A stretch of DNA of 38,840 bases, taken from positions 1 to 38,840 of the forward strand of contig JAMCWJ010000096.1 in the NCBI GenBank assembly GCA_023475105.1, written 5' to 3'. The notes below the pieces were generated by a model, which did not search any database, had not been told where the DNA came from, and saw only the letters and a list, made by a program, of their open reading frames with translations. Position 1 is the first letter of the stretch; the number at the start of each line of letters is the position of its first letter. The stretch comes from Nitrospirota bacterium (lineage in GTDB: Bacteria > Nitrospirota > Thermodesulfovibrionia > Thermodesulfovibrionales > UBA9159). The position numbers were made by a program, and so were the translations under genes. Positions 14,185 to 27,309 of the stretch are shown here, piece by piece.

Positions 14185-15309
14185 TTAGATAGCCTTGATC
14201 CTCTTCAGCGCGCCGACGAAGTTATCGACGAGCAGGGGGTTGAAGTCCCTTCCCGCCGCCGCTTTCATAAACTCGACTGTCGGGCCGATGTCGAGGGCCC
14301 TCCGGTAAGACCTCTCTGTCCTCAGTGCGTCGAAAAAGTCGGCTATTGCGACCATCTGGCTCGCGATATGCTGTCTCTTCCCCCGCCTCTTCGTATCGGG
14401 ATACCCGTTTCCGTTGAATTTCATGTGGTGTTCGAAGGCGGCGATGACCGAAAGTTTCGGCGCGTCCGGGAGTGTTGCAAGATATCGTGCTCCAAGTACC
14501 GGATGCCGCTTTATGGCGTCCCATTCGGTCTCGCTGAGCTTTTCCGTCTTTTCAAGCACCCCTTTCGGTACGAACAACTTCCCCACGTCGTGGAGCAGAG
14601 CTGCAAGACCGAGGTCGTGAAGACTTTCTCCCTGTATCCCCAGGGCCTCTGCCTGGAACATGGTGAGCACCGAAACATTCGTGGCATGCACATAGGTATA
14701 CCCGCTGTAAGACTTCACCGGACTGATTATCCGGAGCACGTTCATCTCCCTTTTCAATGTCGAGATGAATCCCGCCACGGCATCCTCGAGGCTCACCACC
14801 TCCAGTCTTCTGAACTTGGCGACCCCCTGGTAGATCTCCCTGACCTTCGTGATATTTTCGTTTACGAGATCGCTGATATCGACTCCCTCGGCCTTGAATT
14901 TCACCTCGACCATACCCACCGAAACATGTGGGGAGGAGAGCACCCTCTCCCCCGAGACGGCGCGGGCTATGAACTGTTTCAGCTCTTCGAGATCCACCCC
15001 TTTCCGTATCACGATTTTCTCTATCCCTTTCTTCCTCATCCTTTTTTTGAAACTGTCGATATGCGTGCCGGTTTCCTTCACCGGGTTGTCATTTGCGACA
15101 AGACTGTCCCCGAGGAGGGTGAGACTTATCAGGTTGTCGCTGTAGAACCCTTCCATCAGCTCGAGGGCCTTTTGAGCAAACGCGTCGACCAGGGGGTGTC
15201 TCTCCGAGTAGAGGGAACAGTTCGAAAGGGAGGTCACGAGGTGAGAGATGAGTTCAGTTGGGTCCTTCGCGGTCATGGCCCTCTCCTTTGTTCCTGAGGA
15301 ATTTTTCAC
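14185..15309 (-). CDS. HD-GYP domain phosphodiesterase (copy 2, paralog of 10698..11795)
   Basis: About 70% aa identity to copy 1 by eye. HHMKFNGNGYP and LLHDVGK motifs are conserved. The last ~65 nt of the 3' end are near-identical to copy 1. Confidence 0.85.
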   Translation of the reverse strand: MKNSSGTKERAMTAKDPTELISHLVTSLSNCSLYSERHPLVDAFAQKALELMEGFYSDNLISLTLLGDSLVANDNPVKETGTHIDSFKKRMRKKGIEKIVIRKGVDLEELKQFIARAVSGERVLSSPHVSVGMVEVKFKAEGVDISDLVNENITKVREIYQGVAKFRRLEVVSLEDAVAGFISTLKREMNVLRIISPVKSYSGYTYVHATNVSVLTMFQAEALGIQGESLHDLGLAALLHDVGKLFVPKGVLEKTEKLSETEWDAIKRHPVLGARYLATLPDAPKLSVIAAFEHHMKFNGNGYPDTKRRGKRQHIASQMVAIADFFDALRTERSYRRALDIGPTVEFMKAAAGRDFNPLLVDNFVGALKRIKAI

Positions 15310-17424
15310 TCATCGTCCGTATCTCTTTGTCCCGTGAAGTGAGCCCGCGTTCAAGAAGGGGCCTCACAGAGGCCGGCGGATACTGGGAGAGGCTCTTCAG
15401 GATCTCGCCCCTTATCTCCTCCATCCTGCTTCGGTAAAGCAGGCTCCTGGCGCGGCATAGCCTCATGAGCGCATCCAGCGCCCTGGGGTCTCCTATCTCT
15501 CCGAGCGCCCTCACCACGGAAAGCTTGTAATGAAGTTCGATGCCGAAAAGGTCCTTCCGTTCGAGTATTTCGAGAAGGTAAGGGACCGCCTCCCTCACCT
15601 TGTACGCACCCGCAAGCCGTATTATTTGGTCCCGTAACTCGAGGTCTTTGGACTGAAGGAAGAACCTGACGTAGGGAAAAGCCCCGGGGATACCGAAGTG
15701 CAGGAGGGTCTTCGTCGCTTCGACGCTTATCCTCTTGTCCGGATGTTTCGCCAGCGGCTTGACACGGCCGACGTGCTGTATGCCTCCGCACTCCCTGATA
15801 AGGTATATCATGTTTCTCACCACATACCACCGGGCATCGTTCAGTCTTCTCGCCGCCTCCGGGACTATGTCGGTCCTGAAGGCGGCCAGCACGGAAAGGA
15901 AGAACTTCCTTGTCGAAGGATCGGCCTCTCCCGCAAGGGCGTCCAGCAGGGGGTCGGTCAGAGAGCGCTTCAGAACCCGTGCGATACGCATTACCCCTTC
16001 CCTGTTAAGTCTTCCCCAGAGCTTGAACGCCTCGACGAGCTTCGCAAGTGAACGCCTCCGAAGTGAAGGAATACTGGATCATCGCTGCAGCCTCTTCCCT
16101 GAACCTCCCGTTGAGGGCCTCCGAGTAAAGGGCGTTGTAAATCTCGGTGATCTCCTCGAATCTACCGGTCACGAGAAATTCCAACGAGACCTGCAAGCTT
16201 CGTGAGGAGCGCAAGGTACCCTTCCCTGTCCGTGGAGTCAGAGCCGATGAGTTCGATCAGCACCTCGGCGGTCACGCGGTCGATCGTCTCATCCCGGCAC
16301 TCGGCCTTCACTTCCTCCGGCACACGCGACCTCCGGCTGTCGAAGCCTCTCAGCATCCGCTCGAGCTCCTCCTGATATCGCTCTGCAACGAAGCTCTTGA
16401 ATCCGTCCTCGGTGAAAAGCCCCAATATCTCCTCGTCGATCTCGAGGTCGTCCACAACGCCTTTCTCTTCCGCGAGCAGATCGAAGAATCCGTTTCCCCT
16501 CTTGGAAGCTGTCAGCTTATCGATGGTGTTCCTCAGGCTCTCGGGAATGAAGGAGGAGTGCTCGGTGAAAATCCTCATCACCTTCTCTATATCGGACTGC
16601 ATCAGCCCGTTGAATAGCTCTTCGGCCTCCTTCGTGTCGATCTGCGGATAACTGAATGACCTCCTCAGAAACTGCTCCTTGAGCTTCGGATTGAGGTCCT
16701 CAACCATCGAGATAAACCGTGTGAAGAGCTCCCGGTTGAAGCCCGAGTTCTCTTTCCTTCTCAGGTAGCCCGTGATCACTCTGTCGTAAGTCTTTTCCGG
16801 AGCGTTTTCGGGTATCTGTTCGTTGAGGAAGGAGGCAATGTTCCCCGGGGGCAAGGCGAGGAGCACCCCCTCGGCCTCCGAATCGGCGAGCTTCCCCTCG
16901 AGCAGTCCGTACACATAATCTTCCCATATCGCGCCTTCGGGGCCGGTCTCTCTCAGGGAATCCTCTACGAAACCGAACTTCGAAATATCGATGGGGATGA
17001 GGCCCAGGTGCGTGAGACCGTCCTTTCCTGCTCGTTCGGCCAGGGCCTTCCCCACAGGGGCCTCCTTCGAGGTGATCAGCTTCTGCAGACCGACGAGTTC
17101 GTCCCTTTCAAGCCCCGTATAAAAAGTGATCGCCGCGATTCCCTTGCGGTGTATGCTGAGGGCGAATTCCCTGTAGACGGGGTTCTTCCTCTCGAGGGTA
17201 TATTCGTCGATCACGAGCGTGTCTTTTGCAACGCCGATCGTGATGCTGCTCCTCAGTTCGAAGAGCTTCCGGAGGAACTGAAAGGCCTTATCGATCGACT
17301 CCCGGGCGATGGGATGTTCCGGGGGATAGAGGCCGACACTCCGCCTCGAAATGTTGAGCTCGATGACCGCATCGGAAAGAAGCTTGGCGTCGATCGGAAG
17401 CTTCCCGCTTCTCTTCTCTTCCAC
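15254..17424 (-). pseudogene. HEAT-repeat protein gene, copy 2, disrupted by two frameshifts (ORF fragments 16162..17424, 16005..16214, 15254..15991)
   Basis: The three ORF fragments are collinear with the copy-1 protein (N-terminal 420 aa, middle 69 aa, C-terminal 245 aa). Frames shift near ~16200 and ~16060-16080. The aligned segment between the conserved CTTCCCCAGAG and GAGTAAAG anchors is 120 nt here (~16008..16127) versus 119 nt in copy 1 (~12559..12677), a net 1-nt indel. Confidence 0.6.
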
Positions 17425-17581: not shown

Positions 17582-18472
17582 GTGGAGATGCGACCGGAGG
17601 ACTTCATAACGGACAGGGAGGTCCTCGAAGAATTGGTCGGGCCCCGGAACAGGCTCATAATGGTCCTGGGGGCCTCCGACACGGGGAAAACGGCCCTTGT
17701 TGCAACGCTCGCGGCGTTTCTTTCCGAGCTCGCACCGGCCGCGGTCGTGGATCTGGACATGGGACAGTCCCATATAGGACCTCCGGCAACGATCGCCTGG
17801 GGCAGGATCGACCGGGGGGGCGCGGAGTGGTCGGCTGTCGCTGTCGAAGACTTCTATTTCACGGGAAGCACCACGCCCTTCGGGAATCTTCTGCCGGCTG
17901 TTACCGGCTCAAAGCTCATGACGGACAAGGCCCTTTTCTCGTGCCGGAAGGTTCTGGTCGACACCACGGGGCTCGTTGCGGAACCGGCGGGACGGGCGTT
18001 GAAGCACTTCAAGATCGATCTCCTGGGTCCGGACATCATCCTCGCTCTTGAACATTCAGGCGAGTTGAGCCATATCCTCGACCCCTTCAGGCCGGCGAAA
18101 CACCCTAAGGTATACAGGCTCCTCGCGCCGAAGGGGGCGCGGGCGAAGACATCGGCCGGAAGGAGTCTCTACCGGTTCGAAAAGATGGAGCGTTATTTTG
18201 CGGATTCAGAGGTCCGCGCTGTTCCGATCGATGATGTCGGGATGCGATTCACAAAGGGACCGGCGCCCCCCGGAGCCCTGAAGCACAGGATCGTCTCCTT
18301 CAGGGACGAGGAGAACAGGGACATCGCCCTCGGCCTCGTCGAGGGGGTGAAGGAGGAGGAAGGTCTTCTCCTCATACGCACCCCTTTGGGAGAAGGGAGA
18401 CGCTTCTGCACCCTGGTGGTCGGAAAAACCGAAATGGACAGGGCGAACTCCCTGTTGACCGATGTGCGCTGA
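17582..18472 (+). CDS. Clp1-family P-loop protein (polynucleotide 5'-kinase-like)
   Basis: IMVLGASDTGKTALVATL matches the Clp1 P-loop VMVVGPTDVGKSTLCRLL. VDLDMGQSHIGPPAT matches VELDVGQGSVSIPGT. FYFTGSTTPFGN matches YHFGSTTPGTN. VDTTGLVAEPAGRAL matches NTCGWVKGSGYQAL. The true start may be the second ATG at 17588, which has better AGGAGG spacing. Confidence 0.7.
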   Translation: MEMRPEDFITDREVLEELVGPRNRLIMVLGASDTGKTALVATLAAFLSELAPAAVVDLDMGQSHIGPPATIAWGRIDRGGAEWSAVAVEDFYFTGSTTPFGNLLPAVTGSKLMTDKALFSCRKVLVDTTGLVAEPAGRALKHFKIDLLGPDIILALEHSGELSHILDPFRPAKHPKVYRLLAPKGARAKTSAGRSLYRFEKMERYFADSEVRAVPIDDVGMRFTKGPAPPGALKHRIVSFRDEENRDIALGLVEGVKEEEGLLLIRTPLGEGRRFCTLVVGKTEMDRANSLLTDVR

Positions 18473-19275: not shown

Positions 19276-20036
19276 TGATGTCGCTGAGTGTGAGAAAGGC
19301 ATTCAGGGTCTGGCAGAGGAATTTCACCGTGTACACCAAGCTCTATCTCTCGAGTCTTGCGCTGAATTTTGTCGAGCCTGTTCTGTATCTTGCCGCACTC
19401 GGTCTCGGCCTAGGCGCCTTTGTGAAAGAGATACACGGTGTGCCGTACATAAACTTTATCGCGCCGGGGATCATCGCATCCTCTTCCATGTTTGCCGCGA
19501 TCTATGAATGCACCTACGGCACCTATGTGAGAATGACCTTTCAAAAGACGTTCGACGCCATACTGGCGACTCCTGTGAACATCAACGACCTCGTGGCGGG
19601 CGAATTGCTGTGGGGAGCGACCAAGAGTGTGCTCTACGGCACGATTATCATGGTCGTGATATCCCTGTTCGGGCTCGTAGATTCCGCTGCGATCGTGCTG
19701 GTCATACCGGTGCTCTTTATAAGCGGGCTCATCTTTTCGGAGATATCCCTTGTCGCGGTCGCGACCGTGCCGGGGATAGACACCTTCAACTATTTTTACA
19801 CGCTCCTGATGACCCCGATGTTCCTCTTTTCAGGCATCTTTTTCCCCCTGGACACGCTGCCTCCCGTTGTCATGAAGATCGCCTTTTTCACCCCCCTCTA
19901 TCATCTTGTGAACATCTGCAGGGCCTTTTCTTCGGGGAATATCGGAGACCCCCTTGACCTCGTATGGCTTGTCGCCGTCGTCGCAATCCTGGCGCCCTAT
20001 CCCTTCAGATTGATGAGAAGGCGGATCATAAAATAA
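19272..20036 (+). CDS. ABC-2 type transporter permease (NodJ/DrrB-like)
   Basis: Six predicted TM helices. ATGA overlap with the ATPase gene. Confidence 0.8.
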   Translation: MMMSLSVRKAFRVWQRNFTVYTKLYLSSLALNFVEPVLYLAALGLGLGAFVKEIHGVPYINFIAPGIIASSSMFAAIYECTYGTYVRMTFQKTFDAILATPVNINDLVAGELLWGATKSVLYGTIIMVVISLFGLVDSAAIVLVIPVLFISGLIFSEISLVAVATVPGIDTFNYFYTLLMTPMFLFSGIFFPLDTLPPVVMKIAFFTPLYHLVNICRAFSSGNIGDPLDLVWLVAVVAILAPYPFRLMRRRIIK

Positions 20037-20140
20037 CGGAAAGGCCGGGGCGGCGGCCTCCTCGTCTGAGCCTCTCTTGACAACCGGGCACTTATGAAAT
20101 ACGCTGAGAGTGACAGACCACAGAGAAAAGGGAGGCCGGC

Positions 20141-20332
20141 ATGTTGTGCACAGTGGCGACTCTCGACGGGGAAAAGCTCAGGACGGTACAGTCCCTCGAA
20201 AAGGAATTGGGGAAGACCCTGCTTGCGTTTTCGTGCAGGGACATAGGCGTCACTCCTCTGAACGATGATGAGATCGCGCGAATAAAGCGGATCGAGGAGC
20301 AGCTGGGGGTCGCCCTGGTCGCCGTGAAATGA
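20141..20332 (+). CDS. small hypothetical protein (63 aa)
   Basis: Strong RBS (GGGAGG 7 nt upstream of ATG). Followed by a hairpin plus T-tract terminator. Non-biased composition. Confidence 0.45.
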   Translation: MLCTVATLDGEKLRTVQSLEKELGKTLLAFSCRDIGVTPLNDDEIARIKRIEEQLGVALVAVK

Positions 20333-20336
20333 CGAC

Positions 20337-20380
20337 CTGAGGAGGAAAGGGGGAAGAGCCTCCCTCAGCGCCTTTTTCTT
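20337..20380 (+). terminator. rho-independent terminator (CTGAGGAGG...CCTCCCTCAG stem followed by CGCCTTTTTCTT)
   Basis: GC-rich inverted repeat with a 13-nt loop, followed by a U-tract on the + strand. Confidence 0.45.
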
Positions 20381-20553
20381 AACCGCAGCAATCGTCCGCA
20401 CCACCTGAGGGCGCGTCTCAATCTTCCGATTTCTTTCGTACCGTACAGTGACGGATAGATGGTGATCTTTCCGTCCTTGGATACCTCGCAGCTTATCTTG
20501 TGTTGTTTCGTTTTCATGAATCAGTGCATCGTCCGGAACGCCTGAGACGGGGA

Positions 20554-20967
20554 TCAGCGCGCGGGGAAACTCTTTCCGGGTCCGGCGGCCCCGGAAACGG
20601 CATCCGATGCGACCCGCTTGAGAATCTCCGGGATCCGCCTGTATTCGGTCACCTTGTCGAGAAGGAAATCCGCCCTTTCCCAGATCCTCTTCTCATACCG
20701 GCAATAGATTTCGCTGGTGAGCAGAATCACCTTCGGAACAGGCGTGAATTTCCTCATGCTCTTGACAAGGTCGATGCCGCATCTCCACTGTGTCTTCATG
20801 TCCAGTATGATCGCATCGGGCTTTCTCTTCCCTATAGTATTCAACGCATCAATCGGGTCTTCCGCTTCGCCGACGACCCGGATCCCCGGAACGGCGAGGA
20901 TGAGTTTTCTGAACCATGTGCGAAAAAAGGGCGACTCATCGATGATGAAAATCCGCAACTTTCTCAT
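20554..20967 (-). CDS. stand-alone response-regulator receiver domain protein (CheY-like)
   Basis: Receiver fold residues IIDESP, AIILDM and LLTSE. No output domain and no adjacent kinase. Confidence 0.7.
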   Translation of the reverse strand: MRKLRIFIIDESPFFRTWFRKLILAVPGIRVVGEAEDPIDALNTIGKRKPDAIILDMKTQWRCGIDLVKSMRKFTPVPKVILLTSEIYCRYEKRIWERADFLLDKVTEYRRIPEILKRVASDAVSGAAGPGKSFPAR

Positions 20968-21090
20968 CTCTCCCCCTTTGTGAGCTCATCCTATCAAACG
21001 AACATTAACTCCCGATTAATTTTTGATTAAATTTACAGAAATTATCTCAAAATCGGTTTGCCCTGAAAGAGCGGTCATGCCTGCGAAGCG

Positions 21091-21119
21091 TTGACTTGAA
21101 CGGCGCGGGCCCGTAATAC
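21091..21119 (+). promoter_or_regulatory. putative sigma70 promoter (TTGACT - 17 nt - TAATAC) for the 21142-24383 operon
   Basis: Hexamers read by eye. GGAGG RBS 8 nt before the ATG at 21142. An upstream AT-rich block carries direct repeats GATTAAT-TTTT-GATTAAA. Confidence 0.35.
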
Positions 21120-21141
21120 TTACAGGCGAAGGAGGGTCTTT

Positions 21142-21636
21142 ATGAGCCTTCACGGGAAGCTTGAAAAGCTCGTGCGTATCGTCCCCGGGATAGCGGGATA
21201 TCAGGACAGGGCGGCAGCAGGCGACACAGACAAGGCTGTCAGACTGAAGCTCGCCTCTGAACTCGAGCAGATCAAACGCGACCTCGAAAAGGTGAAAACT
21301 TCCCTCATGGACCGGAACGACCTTTCCCTTTTGCCCGCTCTTGAACGGGTCGCCTCGAAACTGGACAAGACGGGTAATTTGATCAAATATGCGTCAAGGG
21401 GATACAGCGGCGTCTTCGACACGTTCAGGTTCGATCAGCCGAAACTCGAGAGACTTTACTCCTTTGACCTTGAACTTCTTGATGACGTCGCAGTCCTGAA
21501 ATCCCGGACCCGCGAGATGCGCCGCCTGCGGGATGAGATGCCTGCGCTCAAAGGCAGCGCAGAGAAGATCGGGAAAGAGGTCGATGCATTAGAGAAGAAA
21601 TTCCTCGGAAGACAAGCTGTCGTGACTGAAGGATAG
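21142..21636 (+). CDS. hypothetical protein, predicted mostly helical (164 aa), first gene of the SPFH/zinc-ribbon operon
   Basis: Good RBS and charged helical composition. No recognised domain. Not obviously PspA. Confidence 0.5.
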   Translation: MSLHGKLEKLVRIVPGIAGYQDRAAAGDTDKAVRLKLASELEQIKRDLEKVKTSLMDRNDLSLLPALERVASKLDKTGNLIKYASRGYSGVFDTFRFDQPKLERLYSFDLELLDDVAVLKSRTREMRRLRDEMPALKGSAEKIGKEVDALEKKFLGRQAVVTEG

Positions 21637-21645
21637 GAGAGAGAA

Positions 21646-22791
21646 ATGACGCAATTCATGGAAGTCGTCGAGTGGTTCGACAAAACAGGCCAGGAAGTTG
21701 TGCACCGCTATCCCGAAGAGGGCTCCGGAGAGATAAAGTTCGGCGCGCAGGTTGTAGTAAGAGAAAACCAGGCGGCGGTTTTCTTCAGGGACGGAAAGGG
21801 GATGGACGTCCTCGGACCGGGAAGGCATACCCTCTCGACACAGAACCTGCCGATCCTGACCAAGGTCCTCTCGCTGCCCTGGGGGTTCAAGAGCCCGTTC
21901 AGATGCGAGATCTATTTCGTCAATCTGAAGGTCTTTACCAACATGCGATGGGGGACAAAGGACCCCGTCGCCTTCAAAGACGAGCAATTCGGTCTTATCC
22001 GTCTGAGGGCCTTCGGCACCTTCACCATGCAGGTGACGCAGCCCCTCCTCTTTCTCAATACCCTTGTCGGGACTCAGGGAAGCTTCGAGACGGCGAACGT
22101 CGAAGACTATCTGAGGGAGATCATCGTGTCGAGACTGAACGACTTCCTCGGAGAGGCCGTCGACACGCTCGTCAATCTTCCGAAATACTATGACGAGATG
22201 GCGGTGGCGGTGAAGACGCGCCTCATGGAGGACTTCAGAAAATACGGGATGGAGATGAACGATTTTTACATCAACCGGATCACCCCTCCCGAGGAAGTTC
22301 AGAAAATGATAGACGAACGCTCGGGGATGGCGGCTGTCGGTGATCTCGACAGCTTCCTGAAGTATAAGGCGGCAAAGGCGATGGGCGATGCGGCGGTCTC
22401 CGGGGGAGAGGGTACAGGGGGGGGCGCGGCCGCGGGCATGGGCCTCGGCATCGGCGCGGGCATGGGCATGATGATTCCCGGAATGCTCTTTAAGGTCCTC
22501 GGAAACGGTCAGATCACCCCGGAGAAGATCGCGGAAAAGGGGCTTGTGAATTGCCCTGCGTGCCACGGCGACGTGCCGCTCAGCAGCCGGTTCTGTCCCC
22601 ACTGCGGCCACCAGCTTGTCGTGATCGCGAAATGTCCCCGGTGCAGCAAAGACCTCGCGGTTGGAGACAGATTCTGTCCTTCCTGCGGACTTGATCTCAG
22701 CGCCGAACTCCGCTGCGGCAAATGCAGCGCCAAACTCCCGCCGGGCACAAGGTTTTGCTTTAATTGCGGGGAAAAGGCATCGGGAGAATGA
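21646..22791 (+). CDS. SPFH/band-7 family protein of the YdjI-like ('virion core protein-like') type with three C-terminal zinc ribbons
   Basis: N-terminal EVVEWFD...AAVFFRDG...RAFGTFTMQV resembles Bacillus YdjI-type SPFH proteins as recalled. Gly/Met-rich linker. Three CxxC-x(9-12)-CxxC ribbons: CPACHGD..CPHCGH, CPRCSKD..CPSCG, CGKCSAK..CFNCG. Confidence 0.6.
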   Translation: MTQFMEVVEWFDKTGQEVVHRYPEEGSGEIKFGAQVVVRENQAAVFFRDGKGMDVLGPGRHTLSTQNLPILTKVLSLPWGFKSPFRCEIYFVNLKVFTNMRWGTKDPVAFKDEQFGLIRLRAFGTFTMQVTQPLLFLNTLVGTQGSFETANVEDYLREIIVSRLNDFLGEAVDTLVNLPKYYDEMAVAVKTRLMEDFRKYGMEMNDFYINRITPPEEVQKMIDERSGMAAVGDLDSFLKYKAAKAMGDAAVSGGEGTGGGAAAGMGLGIGAGMGMMIPGMLFKVLGNGQITPEKIAEKGLVNCPACHGDVPLSSRFCPHCGHQLVVIAKCPRCSKDLAVGDRFCPSCGLDLSAELRCGKCSAKLPPGTRFCFNCGEKASGE

Positions 22792-22835
22792 CTGCGCACG
22801 GCGCGCCCGGGCCGGCAGTTTAAGGGACCCGCCCC

Positions 22836-24383
22836 GTGAACCGCCTCGTCGTTACAACGGAATGTCCTTCCTGCGGCGCGCCCCTCGATTTTTCCGAGGG
22901 GACAAACGCGCTCACCTGCGGGCACTGCAGATCGAACCTCCTCGTCACCGGGAAGGGACAGCTGCTGAGCTATTACATATCTCCCTCGCTCGGTGAACGT
23001 ATTGCGATCGCCAGGGCCACGATGGCCCAAAGGAACAGGGGCAGGACGGAACTCAGGGGGGTCCGCGCAAATCTGTATTTCATTCCCTACTACCGGATGA
23101 CGGGCCAGGACTTCAACTGGGAGGAGGCCCCGCCGGAGCCGGCGAGGGAGGTGAGCGGGGAAGACCTCGATTACGGGACATACGGAGAAATGACGTGGAG
23201 GCTGGGTCCGGAGGATATTTCTTCGCTCTGGGGCGCAGCCAAGGACTTCTTCGGACTGATTTCCGGCATGGCTGGAGGAAAGGGGAGAGAGAAGGAACAA
23301 GGAAGGGAGACCCCGATGCGCACGCCGCCGGAGGCGGTAGCCCCGGGACGTCCGGGGGATACCGCCCCGCCCAGGCAAAGGGAGGTCGCTCCGGCGAGGT
23401 CTTCCCTTTACGAGAGAAAGAAAGTCCTTCTCAATGACAGGTACATCGAAAAAAACTTTCTCGCCTGTGATCTCCACGGTATCGGAATATACTCGCTCGG
23501 CATAAGGCCTGCCGTGCTCAGGCTCGAACTCCTTCGCAGGGAAAAGGTCGGTTCTCTCGGGCGCATCGTGAAACCGACACTCGGGCCTGAGGCAGGTGAA
23601 GAAGTCGGGGAAATGGCGGCGCCGGATGCGTCCTTTCTCTCGCGACAGATCATCGGAAAGGTGTTTTCCCTCATCTATTTCCCCTTCTGGATCGTAGAGA
23701 TGGAATCAAGGGGGGAGACGCTCATTACGGTGATCGACGCAGTTTCCGGGGCTGTTGTCCGGGCTGACCTCCCTGCTTTTATCTATCGGACGCTCGACCG
23801 GGCCCTTGAAGAGGAGCCGATGACAATCGGGTTTCGCCCCCTCGTCTGTCCCAACTGCGGCTGGGACTTTCCGGTGAGGTCGGAAGACTCGATCTTTCCC
23901 TGCGCCACATGCAGAAAGGCATGGCAGATACGCGGAAACGGGCTGATCGAGATCGGATACCGGGTCGCCGCCGCACCCGGGAACGACAGCCCGGAGCAAC
24001 TCACCTACCTTCCTTTCTGGGTTGTGGATGCCCTTCCGGAGCAGGGGCGCACCTTTCGGTTTTTCATCCCCGCGTTCCGCTACCGCAGACTGAAATTCCT
24101 CCTGGACCTCGCACTCGTCACATCGAGACTCTGCCCTCCCTATGCGCTCGGGAAAGCCTGCGGGGAATTGTCAGGCGTCTACTATGACCTTGAAGACGCC
24201 GCACGCCTCGCACAATTCGTCAGGACTGCGCTGATTGCGGCAACCATACGGGATTTCAGGTTCGGTCCGCAGGGCTTGAGCGTCACGGGCGCAACCCTGA
24301 CGTGGTTCCCTTTCAGAAAAGAAAAGGGATACCTTGTCGCCCCCTTCGGCTACATCTCGATCCCGGCGAACCTGCTCCTCTGA
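22836..24383 (+). CDS. duplicated zinc-ribbon domain protein (YdjG-like?)
   Basis: Two internal repeats, each opening with a zinc ribbon (CPSCGAPLDF..CGHCRSNL and CPNCGWDFPV..CATCRKAW) followed by a conserved YFPFW/YLPFW segment. Co-oriented 45 nt downstream of the SPFH gene. Confidence 0.55.
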   Translation: MNRLVVTTECPSCGAPLDFSEGTNALTCGHCRSNLLVTGKGQLLSYYISPSLGERIAIARATMAQRNRGRTELRGVRANLYFIPYYRMTGQDFNWEEAPPEPAREVSGEDLDYGTYGEMTWRLGPEDISSLWGAAKDFFGLISGMAGGKGREKEQGRETPMRTPPEAVAPGRPGDTAPPRQREVAPARSSLYERKKVLLNDRYIEKNFLACDLHGIGIYSLGIRPAVLRLELLRREKVGSLGRIVKPTLGPEAGEEVGEMAAPDASFLSRQIIGKVFSLIYFPFWIVEMESRGETLITVIDAVSGAVVRADLPAFIYRTLDRALEEEPMTIGFRPLVCPNCGWDFPVRSEDSIFPCATCRKAWQIRGNGLIEIGYRVAAAPGNDSPEQLTYLPFWVVDALPEQGRTFRFFIPAFRYRRLKFLLDLALVTSRLCPPYALGKACGELSGVYYDLEDAARLAQFVRTALIAATIRDFRFGPQGLSVTGATLTWFPFRKEKGYLVAPFGYISIPANLLL

Positions 24384-24568
24384 CCCGGATGCAAGCAACG
24401 CGGGGAAAAACGCTCCCAATTTGCCGCTGAATCCGGAGATCCGGAGCTGCGACGGACCGAGAGTGAGCGGCGGTGCTGTCCTCATGCAAATATCTTCCTG
24501 AGAGCAGGTCGGGACACTCTCTTGTCTTTTCTTTTTCCGGCCGTTTATCCTAGAGACAGGTAGTCTTC

Positions 24569-25630
24569 GTGGATACGAATGTTCTCAGGGAACAGATCAA
24601 ACTGAACTGCACCATATCGGATGCGCGTTTCTGGGGATACTATTCCATATGCGGCCTCCTCATGAGGCTGAGGGAGCTTTACAGAAACGAAAAGTCTCTC
24701 ATGCCCTGGGACGGGATACGGAAAGAAGAGATGTCGGAATGGATCGCCTCCCGGGAATCACAGTGGAAAGCCCTCGAAAACGAAGACCTCCGTCCCCTCG
24801 AGATTCAGGGAAAGGTTTACGACCCGTTCGAAGTCGACGGTCTGAATGCGCTCCTCAGCAGTCACGGCATGGTCTACGGCGGGGGATACGGCAGGTTCAA
24901 CAAGCCGACGTTTTTCCTCGCCCGTCTCGAAGGGAAACGGGAATACTACGATTATCTCATCCACTATACGGGAAGGGAGTTCAGCAGGGACCTTTCGACC
25001 TCTGTGGCGATGCTCCAGGGCAGATGTATATTCATGAGACTCGAACCGCTGAGCGCCCTGCTCTGGGACAAGTTTCAGGAGTTGCGCAGCAGGAAATTCA
25101 GGGGCGCGCTGGGTGACGCGTTTTCGTCGAGGGGGATTGACGGGTCTCTGCCGCCGAAAGAAGTCTACGGCAGGATCGTCGCGCTTTCCCGGCAGGTCTC
25201 GGAACTCTTCGTCCGTCACGAGATCGGCGAGGCCTTTGAAGATGAGGAAGCGGATGCATGGCTCGGGATCCTCTCCCAGAACGCCGACAGGGCGACCGAA
25301 TTCTATCTGAGAGGGATAAAGGACGTGCTTGCGGATAGTTCCGTCATGGGTCCTCTCAGGGATATCATCGAGAGGAGAGAAAGGTCGGAGATGAGTTTCT
25401 ACATGGTCTTTCTCGACGGAATCAGAAAGTCGCTCTTCCCGGAAATCATGACCGCCTTCCAGGTTTTTACAGAGGGGGGGAACTGGTCCGTGCTCGAAGA
25501 AGCGCGGAGTCGCGGATACGCAAGGACACATGCCCTTCGCAAAGAGGTCGTCGGCTTATGGAAGGAAGGGAAGGCGGAGAAGATCGGGCCCCTGATTCAG
25601 GAGCGTGTGAAGTCCTCTCCCGTCCGTTAG
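24569..25630 (+). CDS. conserved hypothetical protein (353 aa), GTG start
   Basis: Long ORF with ordinary amino-acid composition. The antisense ORF 24758..25531 is Arg/Pro-rich and judged spurious. Confidence 0.5.
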   Translation: MDTNVLREQIKLNCTISDARFWGYYSICGLLMRLRELYRNEKSLMPWDGIRKEEMSEWIASRESQWKALENEDLRPLEIQGKVYDPFEVDGLNALLSSHGMVYGGGYGRFNKPTFFLARLEGKREYYDYLIHYTGREFSRDLSTSVAMLQGRCIFMRLEPLSALLWDKFQELRSRKFRGALGDAFSSRGIDGSLPPKEVYGRIVALSRQVSELFVRHEIGEAFEDEEADAWLGILSQNADRATEFYLRGIKDVLADSSVMGPLRDIIERRERSEMSFYMVFLDGIRKSLFPEIMTAFQVFTEGGNWSVLEEARSRGYARTHALRKEVVGLWKEGKAEKIGPLIQERVKSSPVR

Positions 25631-25956
25631 GCATCCGTTGTTTCGGCGGGACAGAGACCCCGGGCTCATTCTCGCTCCGCTCCGAAGAGGTAATCGATAT
25701 TGCAGACGGCGGGCAGCGCGTCCCTCAAATCCTTTTAAGGCAATAGGATCTGCTGAGGGCATGGCGTCGGGTATACAGGACTTCACCGGATAGTATTTTC
25801 CCGCCCTCGTAAGATCTGCGTGGCTTCCGATGCCGTGAGGAATCGCGACCAAAAGGCTTCTCGATCTACTCCGCCCGCCAGGGGCTCCGTCCCGCCTGCT
25901 GCCGATCTCCATGGACGCTTGCATATTGGCCCGCCAAATACTAAAATCATACGACC

Positions 25957-27309
25957 ATGAAAATACTCAAACATCCAAACGAGACGAGGGAATTTCTCTC
26001 CCTTCTGAGGAAAAGGGCTTCGGGCGGGACGCGCGAGGTCGAGGCGGCAGTAAAAAAGATCCTTTCCGATGTCAGGGAAAAAGGCGACGAAGCGGTTCTC
26101 CGGTATACGGAAAAGTTCGACTCCCTGAAGGTGAAGGATATACGCGTACCGCATGCGGAGATAACGAAACATGCGAATAAGGCGGACCGGAAGATCGTCA
26201 GGGCACTTGAGAAGGCCGCAAAGAGAATCCGTTCCTTCCACGAAATGCAGAGGGAAGGGTCCTGGGCGGTTACGGAACCCGGATACGAGGAGTGTGATGC
26301 CGGAAAATTCCGTGAAACGGCAGCGGGCCGGCAGCGGAGACGGACCTCTCTTCATGCGCTTCTCGGCCAGATCGTGCGTCCTTTGGAAAGGGTCGGTGTG
26401 TACGTTCCCGGGGGCAAGGCATCATACCCTTCGACCGCGCTCATGAACGTGATACCCGCGCAGGTGGCGGGGGTTGAAGAGATCGTTCTTTGCGTGCCGA
26501 CGCCGAACAACGAGGTGAACCCTTATGTCATGGCCGCGGTGAAGATGCTCGGTTTGCGGGAGGTATACAGGATCGGCGGTGCCCAGGCAGTCGGGGCGAT
26601 GGCTTACGGCACCCGGTCGCTCAAGAAGGTGGATAAGATCGTCGGCCCGGGAAACATCTACGTTGCGACCGCAAAGAGGCTCGTCTTCGGCGAAGTCGGC
26701 ATAGACATGATCGCAGGGCCGAGCGAAGTCCTGATCATTGCCGACAAGGCCGCCGCCCCGGCCTTTATCGCCGCCGACCTCCTTAGCCAGGCCGAACATG
26801 ACGAGCTCGCCTCTTCCATTCTTATCACCAACTCGCGGACTCTCGCAGAAAAGGTCCTGGCGGAGCTGAAGAGCCGTCTTGCGCAATTGAAGAGAAAAGC
26901 GATAGCGGAACGGTCTCTGCAGAATTACGGCGCGCTCCTGCTCACGCGTGACATACGGGCTGCGGTCCGGCTTGCGAACGAGATTGCGCCCGAGCACCTC
27001 GAACTCATGACGGGAAACCCCTTCGAGCTCCTTCCAGGGATACGGAATGCAGGGGCCATCTTCGTCGGGCCGTGGACACCCGAACCGTTGGGTGATTATG
27101 TCGCAGGGCCGAACCACACCCTCCCCACGGGCGGCACGGCGCGCTTTTCCTCGCCCCTCGGGGTGTATGACTTCGTGAAGCGCTCCAGCCTCCTCAGTTT
27201 TTCGGAAGAGGGCTTCCGGAGGCTCGCGAAAACAGTGATAACCTTGTCAGAGATCGAGGGATTAACTGCACATGGCAATACGATGAGGGTGAGGCTTCAC
27301 AAGCGATAG
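25957..27309 (+). CDS. hisD: histidinol dehydrogenase
   Basis: Conserved HisD blocks RVGVYVPGG, IGGAQAVGAMAYGT, IAGPSEVLIIAD, SQAEHD and PEHLEL. Contains an unusual ~25-aa Arg-rich insertion (see findings). Confidence 0.9.
   Translation: MKILKHPNETREFLSLLRKRASGGTREVEAAVKKILSDVREKGDEAVLRYTEKFDSLKVKDIRVPHAEITKHANKADRKIVRALEKAAKRIRSFHEMQREGSWAVTEPGYEECDAGKFRETAAGRQRRRTSLHALLGQIVRPLERVGVYVPGGKASYPSTALMNVIPAQVAGVEEIVLCVPTPNNEVNPYVMAAVKMLGLREVYRIGGAQAVGAMAYGTRSLKKVDKIVGPGNIYVATAKRLVFGEVGIDMIAGPSEVLIIADKAAAPAFIAADLLSQAEHDELASSILITNSRTLAEKVLAELKSRLAQLKRKAIAERSLQNYGALLLTRDIRAAVRLANEIAPEHLELMTGNPFELLPGIRNAGAIFVGPWTPEPLGDYVAGPNHTLPTGGTARFSSPLGVYDFVKRSSLLSFSEEGFRRLAKTVITLSEIEGLTAHGNTMRVRLHKR

Follow-up and report, generated by a model that had tools for sequence, protein, structure and literature searches.

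The locus described here raises the question of whether three adjacent genes, referred to as A, B and C, constitute a relative of the PspA-associated ydjG/ydjH/ydjI (samG/samH/samI) module of Bacillus, and of what such a relative might do without PspA. The host of the cassette is an uncultured Nitrospirota bacterium.

Organization of the locus

The window, which is the whole stretch of DNA analysed (38,840 nt), contains three co-directional open reading frames of 164, 381 and 515 aa, separated by gaps of 9 and 44 nt, and all three were found exactly where the original prediction had placed them. Each is preceded by a purine-rich stretch resembling a ribosome-binding site (RBS), and all three are real genes, each with numerous conserved homologs.

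21091..21120, + strand: sigma-70-like promoter candidate TTGACT-18-AATACT, from a consensus scan, in the 174-nt divergent intergenic region upstream of A
21142..21636, + strand: gene A, 164 aa, all-helical bundle protein
21646..22791, + strand: gene B, 381 aa, YdjI/SamI-type SPFH protein
22836..24383, + strand: gene C, 515 aa, predicted soluble protein with two YdjG-like modules, GTG start and no Pfam family

The promoter proposed at 21091 is present as a sequence, but the consensus scan found such sites no more often than in shuffled sequence (2 vs. 1.8 expected), and it is regarded only as a candidate. The terminator scan showed no convincing terminator after gene C, and an Rfam search of positions 20000–26000 identified no RNA family.

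B is a full-length homolog of YdjI

The Pfam profile search suggested with the original prediction matched B to PF13421 (Band_7_1) with an E value of 2.2e-67 and a score of 227.2 bits, far above the cutoff of 24, compared with 66 bits for the general Band_7 model. The YdjI protein of Bacillus itself scored 147 bits on PF13421 and also carries a ribbon. In addition, BLASTP aligned residues 2–325 of B with residues 6–323 of B. subtilis YdjI (E 1e-29, 26% identity; YdjI sequence taken from the Bacillus locus L088), and this alignment starts at residue 2 of B and takes in the Gly/Met region and the terminal ribbon. By its sequence, B is clearly a full-length YdjI/SamI homolog within the Band_7_1 branch of the SPFH proteins, as originally proposed. 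A PDB sequence search with B returned nothing significant.

21700..22332, + strand: SPFH/Band_7_1 domain, B residues 19–229 (Pfam envelope; profile positions 1–210 of 211)
22402..22500, + strand: Gly/Met-rich hydrophobic segment GMGLGxGAGMGMMIPGML, B residues 253–285, candidate membrane-inserting element
22549..22779, + strand: three tandem CxxC...CxxC zinc ribbons, B residues 302–378

The triple zinc-ribbon tail was borne out by six CxxC motifs, which correspond to three ribbons and are also six in number in 58 of the 63 B homologs; the Pfam ribbon models DZR, Zn_Ribbon_1 and Zn_ribbon_3 matched B as well. The Gly/Met-rich stretch GGEGTGGGAAAGMGLGIGAGMGMMIPGM was also confirmed, although its description as a low-complexity linker did not hold. 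The segment is conserved in essentially all 62 B homologs, its maximum Kyte–Doolittle value over 19 residues ranges from 1.15 to 1.8 among them, and the value in B (1.54) compares with 1.56 for the transmembrane anchor of YdjG and 0.41 for the Gly/Met region of YdjI. The stretch is therefore better read as a strongly conserved hydrophobic motif, which is glycine-rich and only borderline for a predicted transmembrane helix. No N-terminal transmembrane segment was found in B. The combination of SPFH domain, Gly/Met segment and C-terminal ribbon had been considered an unusual elaboration, but the same layout, with one ribbon, is present in Bacillus YdjI and was already described by Ravi et al. 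2024 (PMC11237479).

C is a duplicated zinc-ribbon protein distantly related to YdjG

The predicted structure of C is confident (pLDDT 85) and displays two zinc ribbons; after each come cystatin/PepSY/YpeB-like alpha/beta domains that carry the Y-x-P-F-W strands.

22863..22928, + strand: zinc ribbon 1 (CPSC...CGHC), C residues 10–31, cysteines invariant or at least 90% conserved
23133..23405, + strand: variable low-confidence insert, C residues 100–190 (pLDDT 42–61; gaps and variability in the alignment)
23670..23696, + strand: strand LIYFPFWIV, C residues 279–287, with invariant Y281, F282 and P283
23847..23912, + strand: zinc ribbon 2 (CPNCGWD...CATC), C residues 338–359, with invariant C338, C341, C356 and C359
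24003..24023, + strand: strand TYLPFWV of the second module, C residues 390–396, with invariant L392 and P393

The insert contains a semi-conserved amphipathic helix at about residues 125–146 and is missing from some homologs. C matched no Pfam family, with no PepSY or NTF2 match by sequence; a PDB sequence search with the C profile returned nothing significant, and Foldseek of the C model against the PDB gave no match below E 0.1 for the whole chain. The C family comprises 166–739 clusters at 50% identity. Neither a transmembrane segment nor a signal peptide was found in C, and its highest 19-residue Kyte–Doolittle window (1.35) lies within modelled beta strands.

The aromatic motifs YFIPYY, YFPFW, YLPFW and TWFPF occur along the chain. 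When parts of C were compared with each other by HHalign, the two ribbons matched with a probability of 88% over 31 columns and the YFPFW and YLPFW hairpins with 94% over 15 columns, whereas BLASTP of one half against the other reached only E 7e-4 and 1e-3. These comparisons indicate that the internal duplication previously proposed for C is real, but remote and uneven.

Both modules of C independently aligned to the YdjG profile with HHalign probabilities of 91–93%, values obtained with a broader C profile of 208 sequences and a permissive alignment setting (mact 0.05–0.1), and ribbon 2 of C matched ribbon 1 of YdjG with 91%. Default HHalign, with either a single sequence or a 24-sequence profile, aligned the ribbon only, and plain hmmsearch between the two families likewise recovered only the ribbons. 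The domain-level relation was first obtained from sliced alignments and became convincing with the 208-sequence profile. Moreover, LIYFPFWIV of C aligns with MYIPFWMFD of YdjG, a motif common to both proteins. Of the YdjG/SamG traits, the CPNCG...C..C-type ribbons and the post-ribbon YpeB-related/NTF2-like domain are present in C, while the C-terminal transmembrane anchor is missing (Kyte–Doolittle maximum 1.35 vs. 1.56 in YdjG). Remote homology and fold match support C as a distant YdjG-like protein, in agreement with the original prediction of a YdjG-like protein with a duplicated ribbon-plus-domain unit.

A is a helical accessory protein

A is predicted to form a helical bundle (pLDDT 91) and contains two conserved loop motifs, PG.AGYQDRE..RDTDK..R (nt 21181–21243) and RGYSG.FD (nt 21394–21420). 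Its fold gave no functional clue, and a PDB sequence search with the A profile returned nothing significant. A as a replacement of PspA or YdjH was considered and dropped, with HHalign probabilities of 0.2% to each; A had no PspA_IM30 match and resembled the helical hairpin architecture of PspA/Vipp1/ESCRT-III neither in sequence nor in fold. Residues 28–161 of A aligned with positions 39–173 of 175 of the NCBIfam profile NF047596 (LIMLP_15305, hypothetical proteins of Leptospira) with E 3.3e-10, but membership was rejected on a score far below the cutoff (40.1 vs. 210 bits). A literature search on LIMLP_15305 returned nothing useful on function. Divergent relatives of A also lie directly upstream of genes encoding Band_7_1 plus zinc-ribbon (ZnR) proteins. 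A is a lineage-restricted accessory, always directly upstream of B where present.

The B–C pair is the conserved core of the cassette

Among the 69 loci with room for the neighbour, 61 have B immediately before C on the same strand, with a median gap of 18 nt. C lacks an adjacent B in the other 8, and therefore C can work without one. Of 57 loci, 24 have A directly ahead of B (median gap 9 nt). Thus the B–C pair is the conserved core of the cassette and A is optional; the proposed three-gene operon holds for the co-conservation of B and C, but not for all three genes as a universal unit. An 809-aa open reading frame in the related locus L033 was considered as a B–C fusion and rejected, having no Pfam match.

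Carriers were found in Nitrospirota, Methylomirabilota, Binatia, Desulfobacterota, Ignavibacteria, Zixibacteria and other groups, and every one of them is a metagenome-assembled genome. Flanking genes vary among genomes, and any other neighbour family recurs in at most 7 of 80 loci; in the window and six annotated contexts, they are housekeeping or signalling genes. Consistent with the reported lack of an obvious PspA, none is encoded in the operon or among the Pfam-annotated genes within 6–9 kb in six related contexts, and A is unrelated to PspA. No TPM_phosphatase domain, which characterizes YdjH, was detected in the scanned window genes or the related contexts, while the Bacillus control scored 78 bits. 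The different gene order was also verified: here the SPFH gene precedes the YdjG-like gene, whereas ydjG comes first in Bacillus.

Proposed role of the cassette and alternative explanations

The module had been called functionally uncharacterised, but its Bacillus counterpart is partly characterised. In Bacillus, YdjG and YdjH anchor YdjI and recruit this otherwise cytosolic protein into membrane foci, and YdjI in turn recruits PspA (PMC8581546), while the SamGHI phenotypes are PspA-independent (bioRxiv 10.64898/2026.02.06.704340). A literature search on Band_7_1/PF13421/COG4260 yielded nothing useful. The Bacillus mechanism cannot be transferred directly, because C lacks the transmembrane anchor that defines the role of YdjG and the cassette has neither YdjH/TPM nor PspA.

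Most likely, the cassette represents a PspA-independent form of the known YdjI–YdjG (SamI–SamG) membrane-stress module, and its SPFH protein probably assembles close to the membrane. C would bind B and nucleate or regulate B oligomers beneath the cytoplasmic membrane, by analogy with the recruitment of YdjI by YdjG/YdjH in Bacillus. Since C has no transmembrane segment and YdjH is missing, membrane attachment is probably supplied by the Gly/Met segment of B itself. A is probably an adaptor or regulator of B, and the output may be membrane-stress sensing or membrane organisation, independent of an operon-encoded PspA. As a whole, this account of a B–C core, C-nucleated B assemblies at the membrane and A as an add-on is the best explanation, and we consider it somewhat probable.

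An alternative is a soluble assembly with a regulatory rather than a membrane role: B would form a cytoplasmic ring or cage, and its three ribbons and the two of C, five in all, would tether nucleic acid or partners associated with ribosomes. The lack of a clear transmembrane helix or signal peptide in A, B and C would fit this explanation, as would the annotation of such ribbons as TFIIB, RpoP or eL43-like and the cytosolic state of YdjI without its anchors (PMC8581546). However, it hardly explains the strongly conserved hydrophobic Gly/Met segment, the homologous Bacillus system works at the membrane, and no nucleic-acid-binding domain was found beyond generic ribbons; we therefore regard it as rather unlikely. 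Protease regulation, in the manner of HflK/C–FtsH or stomatin–NfeD, is less probable still. The B assembly would enclose or control a protease whose gene lies elsewhere, with the cystatin/PepSY-like domains of C acting as inhibitory or adaptor elements. Cystatin/PepSY-like folds are typical of peptidase inhibitors and propeptides, but the cystatin/NTF2/PepSY fold is so widespread that it is undiagnostic of inhibition, no protease gene is conserved beside the cassette, and YdjI, to which B is closest, has no reported protease link.

The original prediction also raised anti-phage defence, or abortive infection, in which an SPFH/zinc-ribbon complex senses infection and disrupts the membrane. Membrane-acting effectors are common among defence systems, and immediately downstream in one related locus, L086, lie genes for an IS91 transposase, an integrase and a ParE toxin. 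Nevertheless, no PADLOC model matched A or the SPFH domain of B, and that search gave one ribbon-type match for B (E 0.075) and only sub-threshold ribbon matches for C (best E 0.0023); PHROGs gave nothing meaningful and no phage family, and tblastn detected C in none of 72,556 plasmids. Furthermore, the flanking genes in the window and the six annotated contexts are not defence genes and no neighbour recurs, the cassette carries no enzymatic effector domain, and a literature search tied no SPFH module to defence. The suggestion is thus unsupported by the searches and by gene context, and we judge a defence role highly improbable.

Returning to the membrane-stress module, Band_7_1 SPFH proteins occur widely, yet Bacillus is the only setting in which they have been studied, and there they are bound up with PspA and two membrane anchors. 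Here many phyla retain an SPFH protein next to a YdjG-like partner without PspA, without YdjH and without a transmembrane partner, which points to the pair as the functional core. The cassette also offers a minimal two-protein system for studying the route of an SPFH protein to the membrane and the signal sensed by a YdjG-type module, and A and C, as two unnamed families, could enter domain databases. A more tentative and bolder proposal, which is possible rather than probable, is that the YdjI-like/YdjG-like pair, and not PspA or YdjH, would be the ancient core of this class of SPFH systems. In this widespread non-Firmicute branch, the SPFH protein would have become self-anchored by membrane insertion of its conserved Gly/Met segment and its partner a soluble tandem-module sensor or adaptor, with A and C representing two new families. 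If true, uncultured members of Nitrospirota, Methylomirabilota, Binatia, Desulfobacterota and related groups would possess a machine for membrane surveillance that does not depend on PspA. The hosts have not been cultured or are difficult to manipulate, and we infer the biology of the cassette here, including the physical interaction of B with C, the membrane location and the physiological role, by analogy.

Comparison with known systems

The closest known system is the pspA-ydjGHI (pspA-samGHI) operon of B. subtilis. Common to B and YdjI/SamI are the Band_7_1 SPFH domain, the Gly/Met stretch and the C-terminal ribbon; C resembles YdjG/SamG in its ribbons, its post-ribbon cystatin/PepSY/YpeB-like domain and its Y-x-P-F-W strand motif; and in both cases the YdjG-like gene adjoins the SPFH gene. 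In contrast, PspA and the TPM-domain protein YdjH are missing from the Nitrospirota cassette, and the Bacillus operon has no counterpart of the helical protein A. YdjG is a 341-aa protein with a C-terminal transmembrane segment, whereas C is a 515-aa tandem double module without such an anchor, and B differs from the single-ribbon YdjI in its three ribbons and its much more hydrophobic, conserved Gly/Met segment. In addition, the carriers of the B–C cassette are non-Firmicute, whereas the Bacillus operon belongs to Firmicutes.

With the classical SPFH systems (HflK/C–FtsH, stomatin/QmcA–NfeD and the flotillins FloA/FloT), the cassette shares an SPFH domain for which oligomerisation at the membrane is expected and a dedicated partner gene within the operon. 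B differs from these systems in lacking an N-terminal transmembrane segment or hairpin, a long coiled-coil tail and an NfeD or protease partner, and is paired instead with a zinc-ribbon/PepSY-like protein. Moreover, classical PepSY domains are extracytoplasmic, whereas those of C come without a signal peptide or transmembrane segment and are fused to ribbons of cytoplasmic type.

Organization and conservation of the cassette

The contig (38,840 bp) derives from a Nitrospirae (Nitrospirota) MAG and contains exact database matches tagged M1497_13620 and M1497_13630. An ORF check of the window confirmed the original prediction of three co-directional genes, here called A, B, and C, with exact coordinates.

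Features of the cassette and its borders
21091–21120, + strand: candidate sigma-70-like site (consensus scan)
21142–21636, + strand: A, ORF of 164 aa
21646–22791, + strand: B, ORF of 381 aa
22836–24383, + strand: C, ORF of 515 aa, GTG start
24569–25630, + strand: DUF6866 (N and C domains)/NCBIfam Sfum_1244-family gene, 353 aa, 185 nt after C

The A–B and B–C gaps are 9 and 44 nt, respectively, and a purine-rich RBS-like stretch precedes each start. A sigma-70-like site is present where a promoter had been proposed (21091), but it is kept as a candidate because such sites were no more common than in shuffled sequence. The Rfam search and the terminator scan of the locus returned no RNA family and no clear terminator. 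A divergent response regulator gene lies upstream of A, and the flanks comprise ABC transporter, response regulator, DUF6866, hisD, aminotransferase, and histidine kinase genes. Further upstream, a 296-aa protein with a CLP1_P P-loop domain (87 bits; 17582–18472, +), of the type of the mRNA cleavage/polyadenylation factor Clp1 and here on a bacterial contig, is encoded directly before an ABC-2 transporter pair. A 420-aa ORF without a Pfam match (16162–17424, −) lies near an HD_5/HD-domain protein (14185–15309, −), possibly an HD-GYP-type signalling gene; both are unrelated to the cassette.

Relatives of C were detected in 182 of the 185,579 species genomes scanned, and 80 loci were kept. All C-carrying genomes found were MAGs, from Nitrospirota, Methylomirabilota, Binatia, Desulfobacterota, Chloroflexota, Dormibacterota, Thermoanaerobaculia, Ignavibacteria, and Zixibacteria. 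A B homolog was located directly upstream of C on the same strand in 61 of the 69 loci offering ≥1.4 kb of upstream sequence, whereas A preceded B in 24/57 loci with room, a few loci in both counts duplicating one genome (e.g. L001/L020). The median gap was 18 nt between B and C (≤100 nt in 49/55) and 9 nt between A and B (≤100 nt in 20/21). The flanks varied by genome and included housekeeping genes such as MoaC/E, MazG, RF-1, GlnE, and purM; the DUF6866/Sfum_1244-family gene was not kept beside the cassette in other genomes, and no other neighbour family recurred in more than 7 of the 80 loci. Given these linkage counts and varying flanks, the conserved unit is the B–C pair, and A is an accessory gene strictly linked to B. 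Of the predicted three-gene operon, B and C are conserved together, and A is not a constant member.

The eight loci without B form a divergent C subclade, mostly Desulfobacterales-type, and C is directly preceded by a PRAI-like gene in most of these loci, which suggests that C-type proteins are able to pair with a partner other than an SPFH protein. This upstream gene (L067, L073, L074, L075, L080, L081, and L084) encodes a 260–350-aa protein with a weak PRAI (TIM-barrel) match. Among the contexts viewed, a single locus was mobile-element-like: in a Nitrospirae MAG (L086, 10959–13538), the B–C pair is closely followed by genes for an IS91-type transposase, a phage-type integrase, and a ParE toxin.

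B is a YdjI/SamI-type SPFH protein

The SPFH assignment of B was confirmed by Pfam, with residues 19–229 matching Band_7_1 (PF13421; 2.2e-67, 227 bits vs. a cutoff of 24) and residues 299–378 matching several zinc-ribbon models. Six CxxC motifs, hence three ribbons, were found in the tail, as predicted, and six occur in 58/63 B-type proteins. BLASTP aligned B with Bacillus YdjI (E 1e-29, 26% identity), starting at residue 2, crossing the Gly/Met region, and reaching the terminal ribbon; on this alignment, B is classed as a YdjI/SamI-type protein with two ribbons more than YdjI. The Gly/Met-rich stretch described originally was confirmed, but not as a variable low-complexity linker: the motif GMGLGxGAGMGMMIPGML is kept in essentially all 62 B homologs from other genomes. 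Its Kyte–Doolittle 19-residue maximum is 1.54, compared with 0.41 in YdjI, and equals that of the accepted YdjG TM anchor (1.56). A Met/Gly/Asn/Gln-rich stretch also precedes the single ribbon of Bacillus YdjI (L088, 2297–3268), so a Gly/Met-rich spacer is ancestral in this SPFH branch, polar in YdjI and hydrophobic in the branch of B. In a Nitrospira MAG (L036, 3792–6348) the B homolog occupies two separate ORFs, with a shortened C, and in L014 (3760–4635) the B homolog (292 aa) stops ahead of the ribbons; these may be gene decay or assembly errors.

C resembles a tandem of YdjG-like modules

C matched no Pfam, NCBIfam, or PADLOC family, the ribbon matches being sub-threshold, and neither a TM segment nor a signal peptide was detected in it. 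It belongs to a well-conserved full-length family, with more than 333 matches in a word-indexed search and, in an exhaustive profile search, 1351 cluster representatives at E ≤ 1e-3, 739 at E ≤ 1e-10, and 166 at E ≤ 1e-30. Conservation is complete or almost complete at eight ribbon cysteines and in the motifs YFIPYYR, YFPFW, YLPFW, and TWFPF. The internal duplication noted originally is real, though old and uneven (HHalign probability for ZnR1 vs. ZnR2, 88%, and for the two hairpins, 94%; halves by BLASTP, E about 1e-3).

YdjG was described as carrying a pair of ZnRs, then a YpeB-related NTF2-like domain, and finally a TM segment (Ravi et al., 2024; PMC11237479), and C falls in the same fold class. 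Default profile comparisons with YdjG aligned the ribbon alone (91%), and ribbon-free slices gave 58–74%. With a broader C profile (208 sequences, Neff 5.4), C 332–508 matched YdjG 1–304 (93.4%) and C 4–340 matched YdjG 50–334 (91.2%); ribbon-free C 236–311 matched YdjG 89–165 (92.2%, E 5.7e-7), with IYFPFW opposite MYVPFW. The best description of C is therefore two YdjG-like modules in tandem.

Residues 100–190 of C (23133–23405) form a variable low-confidence insert, which some homologs lack entirely (e.g. P0055, P0085, and P0107). Its semi-conserved amphipathic helix (about residues 125–146, SSLWGAAKDFFGLISGMAG) could act either as an in-plane membrane element or in binding a partner.

Protein A

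The sole family signal of A was far sub-threshold (NCBIfam LIMLP_15305, 40 bits vs. a cutoff of 210), and a literature search on that family gave no functional information. Of the A relatives examined, the two most divergent each lie directly upstream of a Band_7_1+ZnR gene. A has two polar loops that are conserved, and these would probably sit together at one end of its helical bundle. PspA and YdjH were ruled out as identities for A (0.2% probability against each Bacillus protein).

Proposed mechanism and alternatives

From the observed homology, architecture, and gene linkage, we infer the whole of the following mechanism. By homology, C would bind B and nucleate or regulate an oligomeric SPFH assembly. 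TM helices are lacking throughout the cassette, so the strongly conserved hydrophobic Gly/Met segment of B would be the best candidate for membrane attachment; A may act as an adaptor or regulator of B. By analogy, we favour this picture as a whole, if only somewhat.

The ribbons might instead mediate a soluble regulatory assembly, which we consider unlikely, and a protease-regulating SPFH complex exploiting the inhibitor-like folds of C seems quite improbable. The anti-phage role raised originally found no backing: the cassette matched no PADLOC defence-system model, the phage-family search (PHROGs) gave no family, the plasmid search found no copy, and the literature search found no such SPFH module tied to phage defence. 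This role is very improbable.

Comparison with the Bacillus pspA-ydjGHI operon

In B. subtilis, cytosolic YdjI is drawn into foci by the membrane proteins YdjG and YdjH and in its turn recruits PspA (PMC8581546). Under the newer name SamGHI, SamI is reported to restrain a SamG–SamH stress-sensor complex, with PspA-independent phenotypes (bioRxiv 10.64898/2026.02.06.704340). A degenerate pattern search of metagenome contigs, based on the ydjG 5' end from cloning primers (PMC8581546), recovered two authentic pspA-ydjG-ydjH-ydjI loci (L088 and L090). In these controls, YdjI showed Band_7_1 plus a ribbon, YdjH showed TPM, and YdjG showed Zn_Ribbon_TF only. In agreement with the original reading, the genes scanned in the window and in six related contexts annotated with Pfam included no PspA, nor was a TPM/YdjH gene among them.

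This kind of system is already known, because an SPFH protein with a C-terminal ribbon and a ribbon plus NTF2-like partner have both been described for the Firmicute ydjFGHI operon, and no surprising biology is demonstrated for the cassette. What is new is the accessory family A, the phyletic range, and the absence of PspA and YdjH from the contexts scanned. The cassette offers a minimal system, in uncultured hosts, for asking what the YdjI–YdjG core does. The partner and the SPFH protein are new as well: C, of an unnamed family, is a TM-less tandem-module protein whereas YdjG is TM-anchored, and B is triple-ribbon with a self-hydrophobic Gly/Met segment whereas YdjI is single-ribbon.
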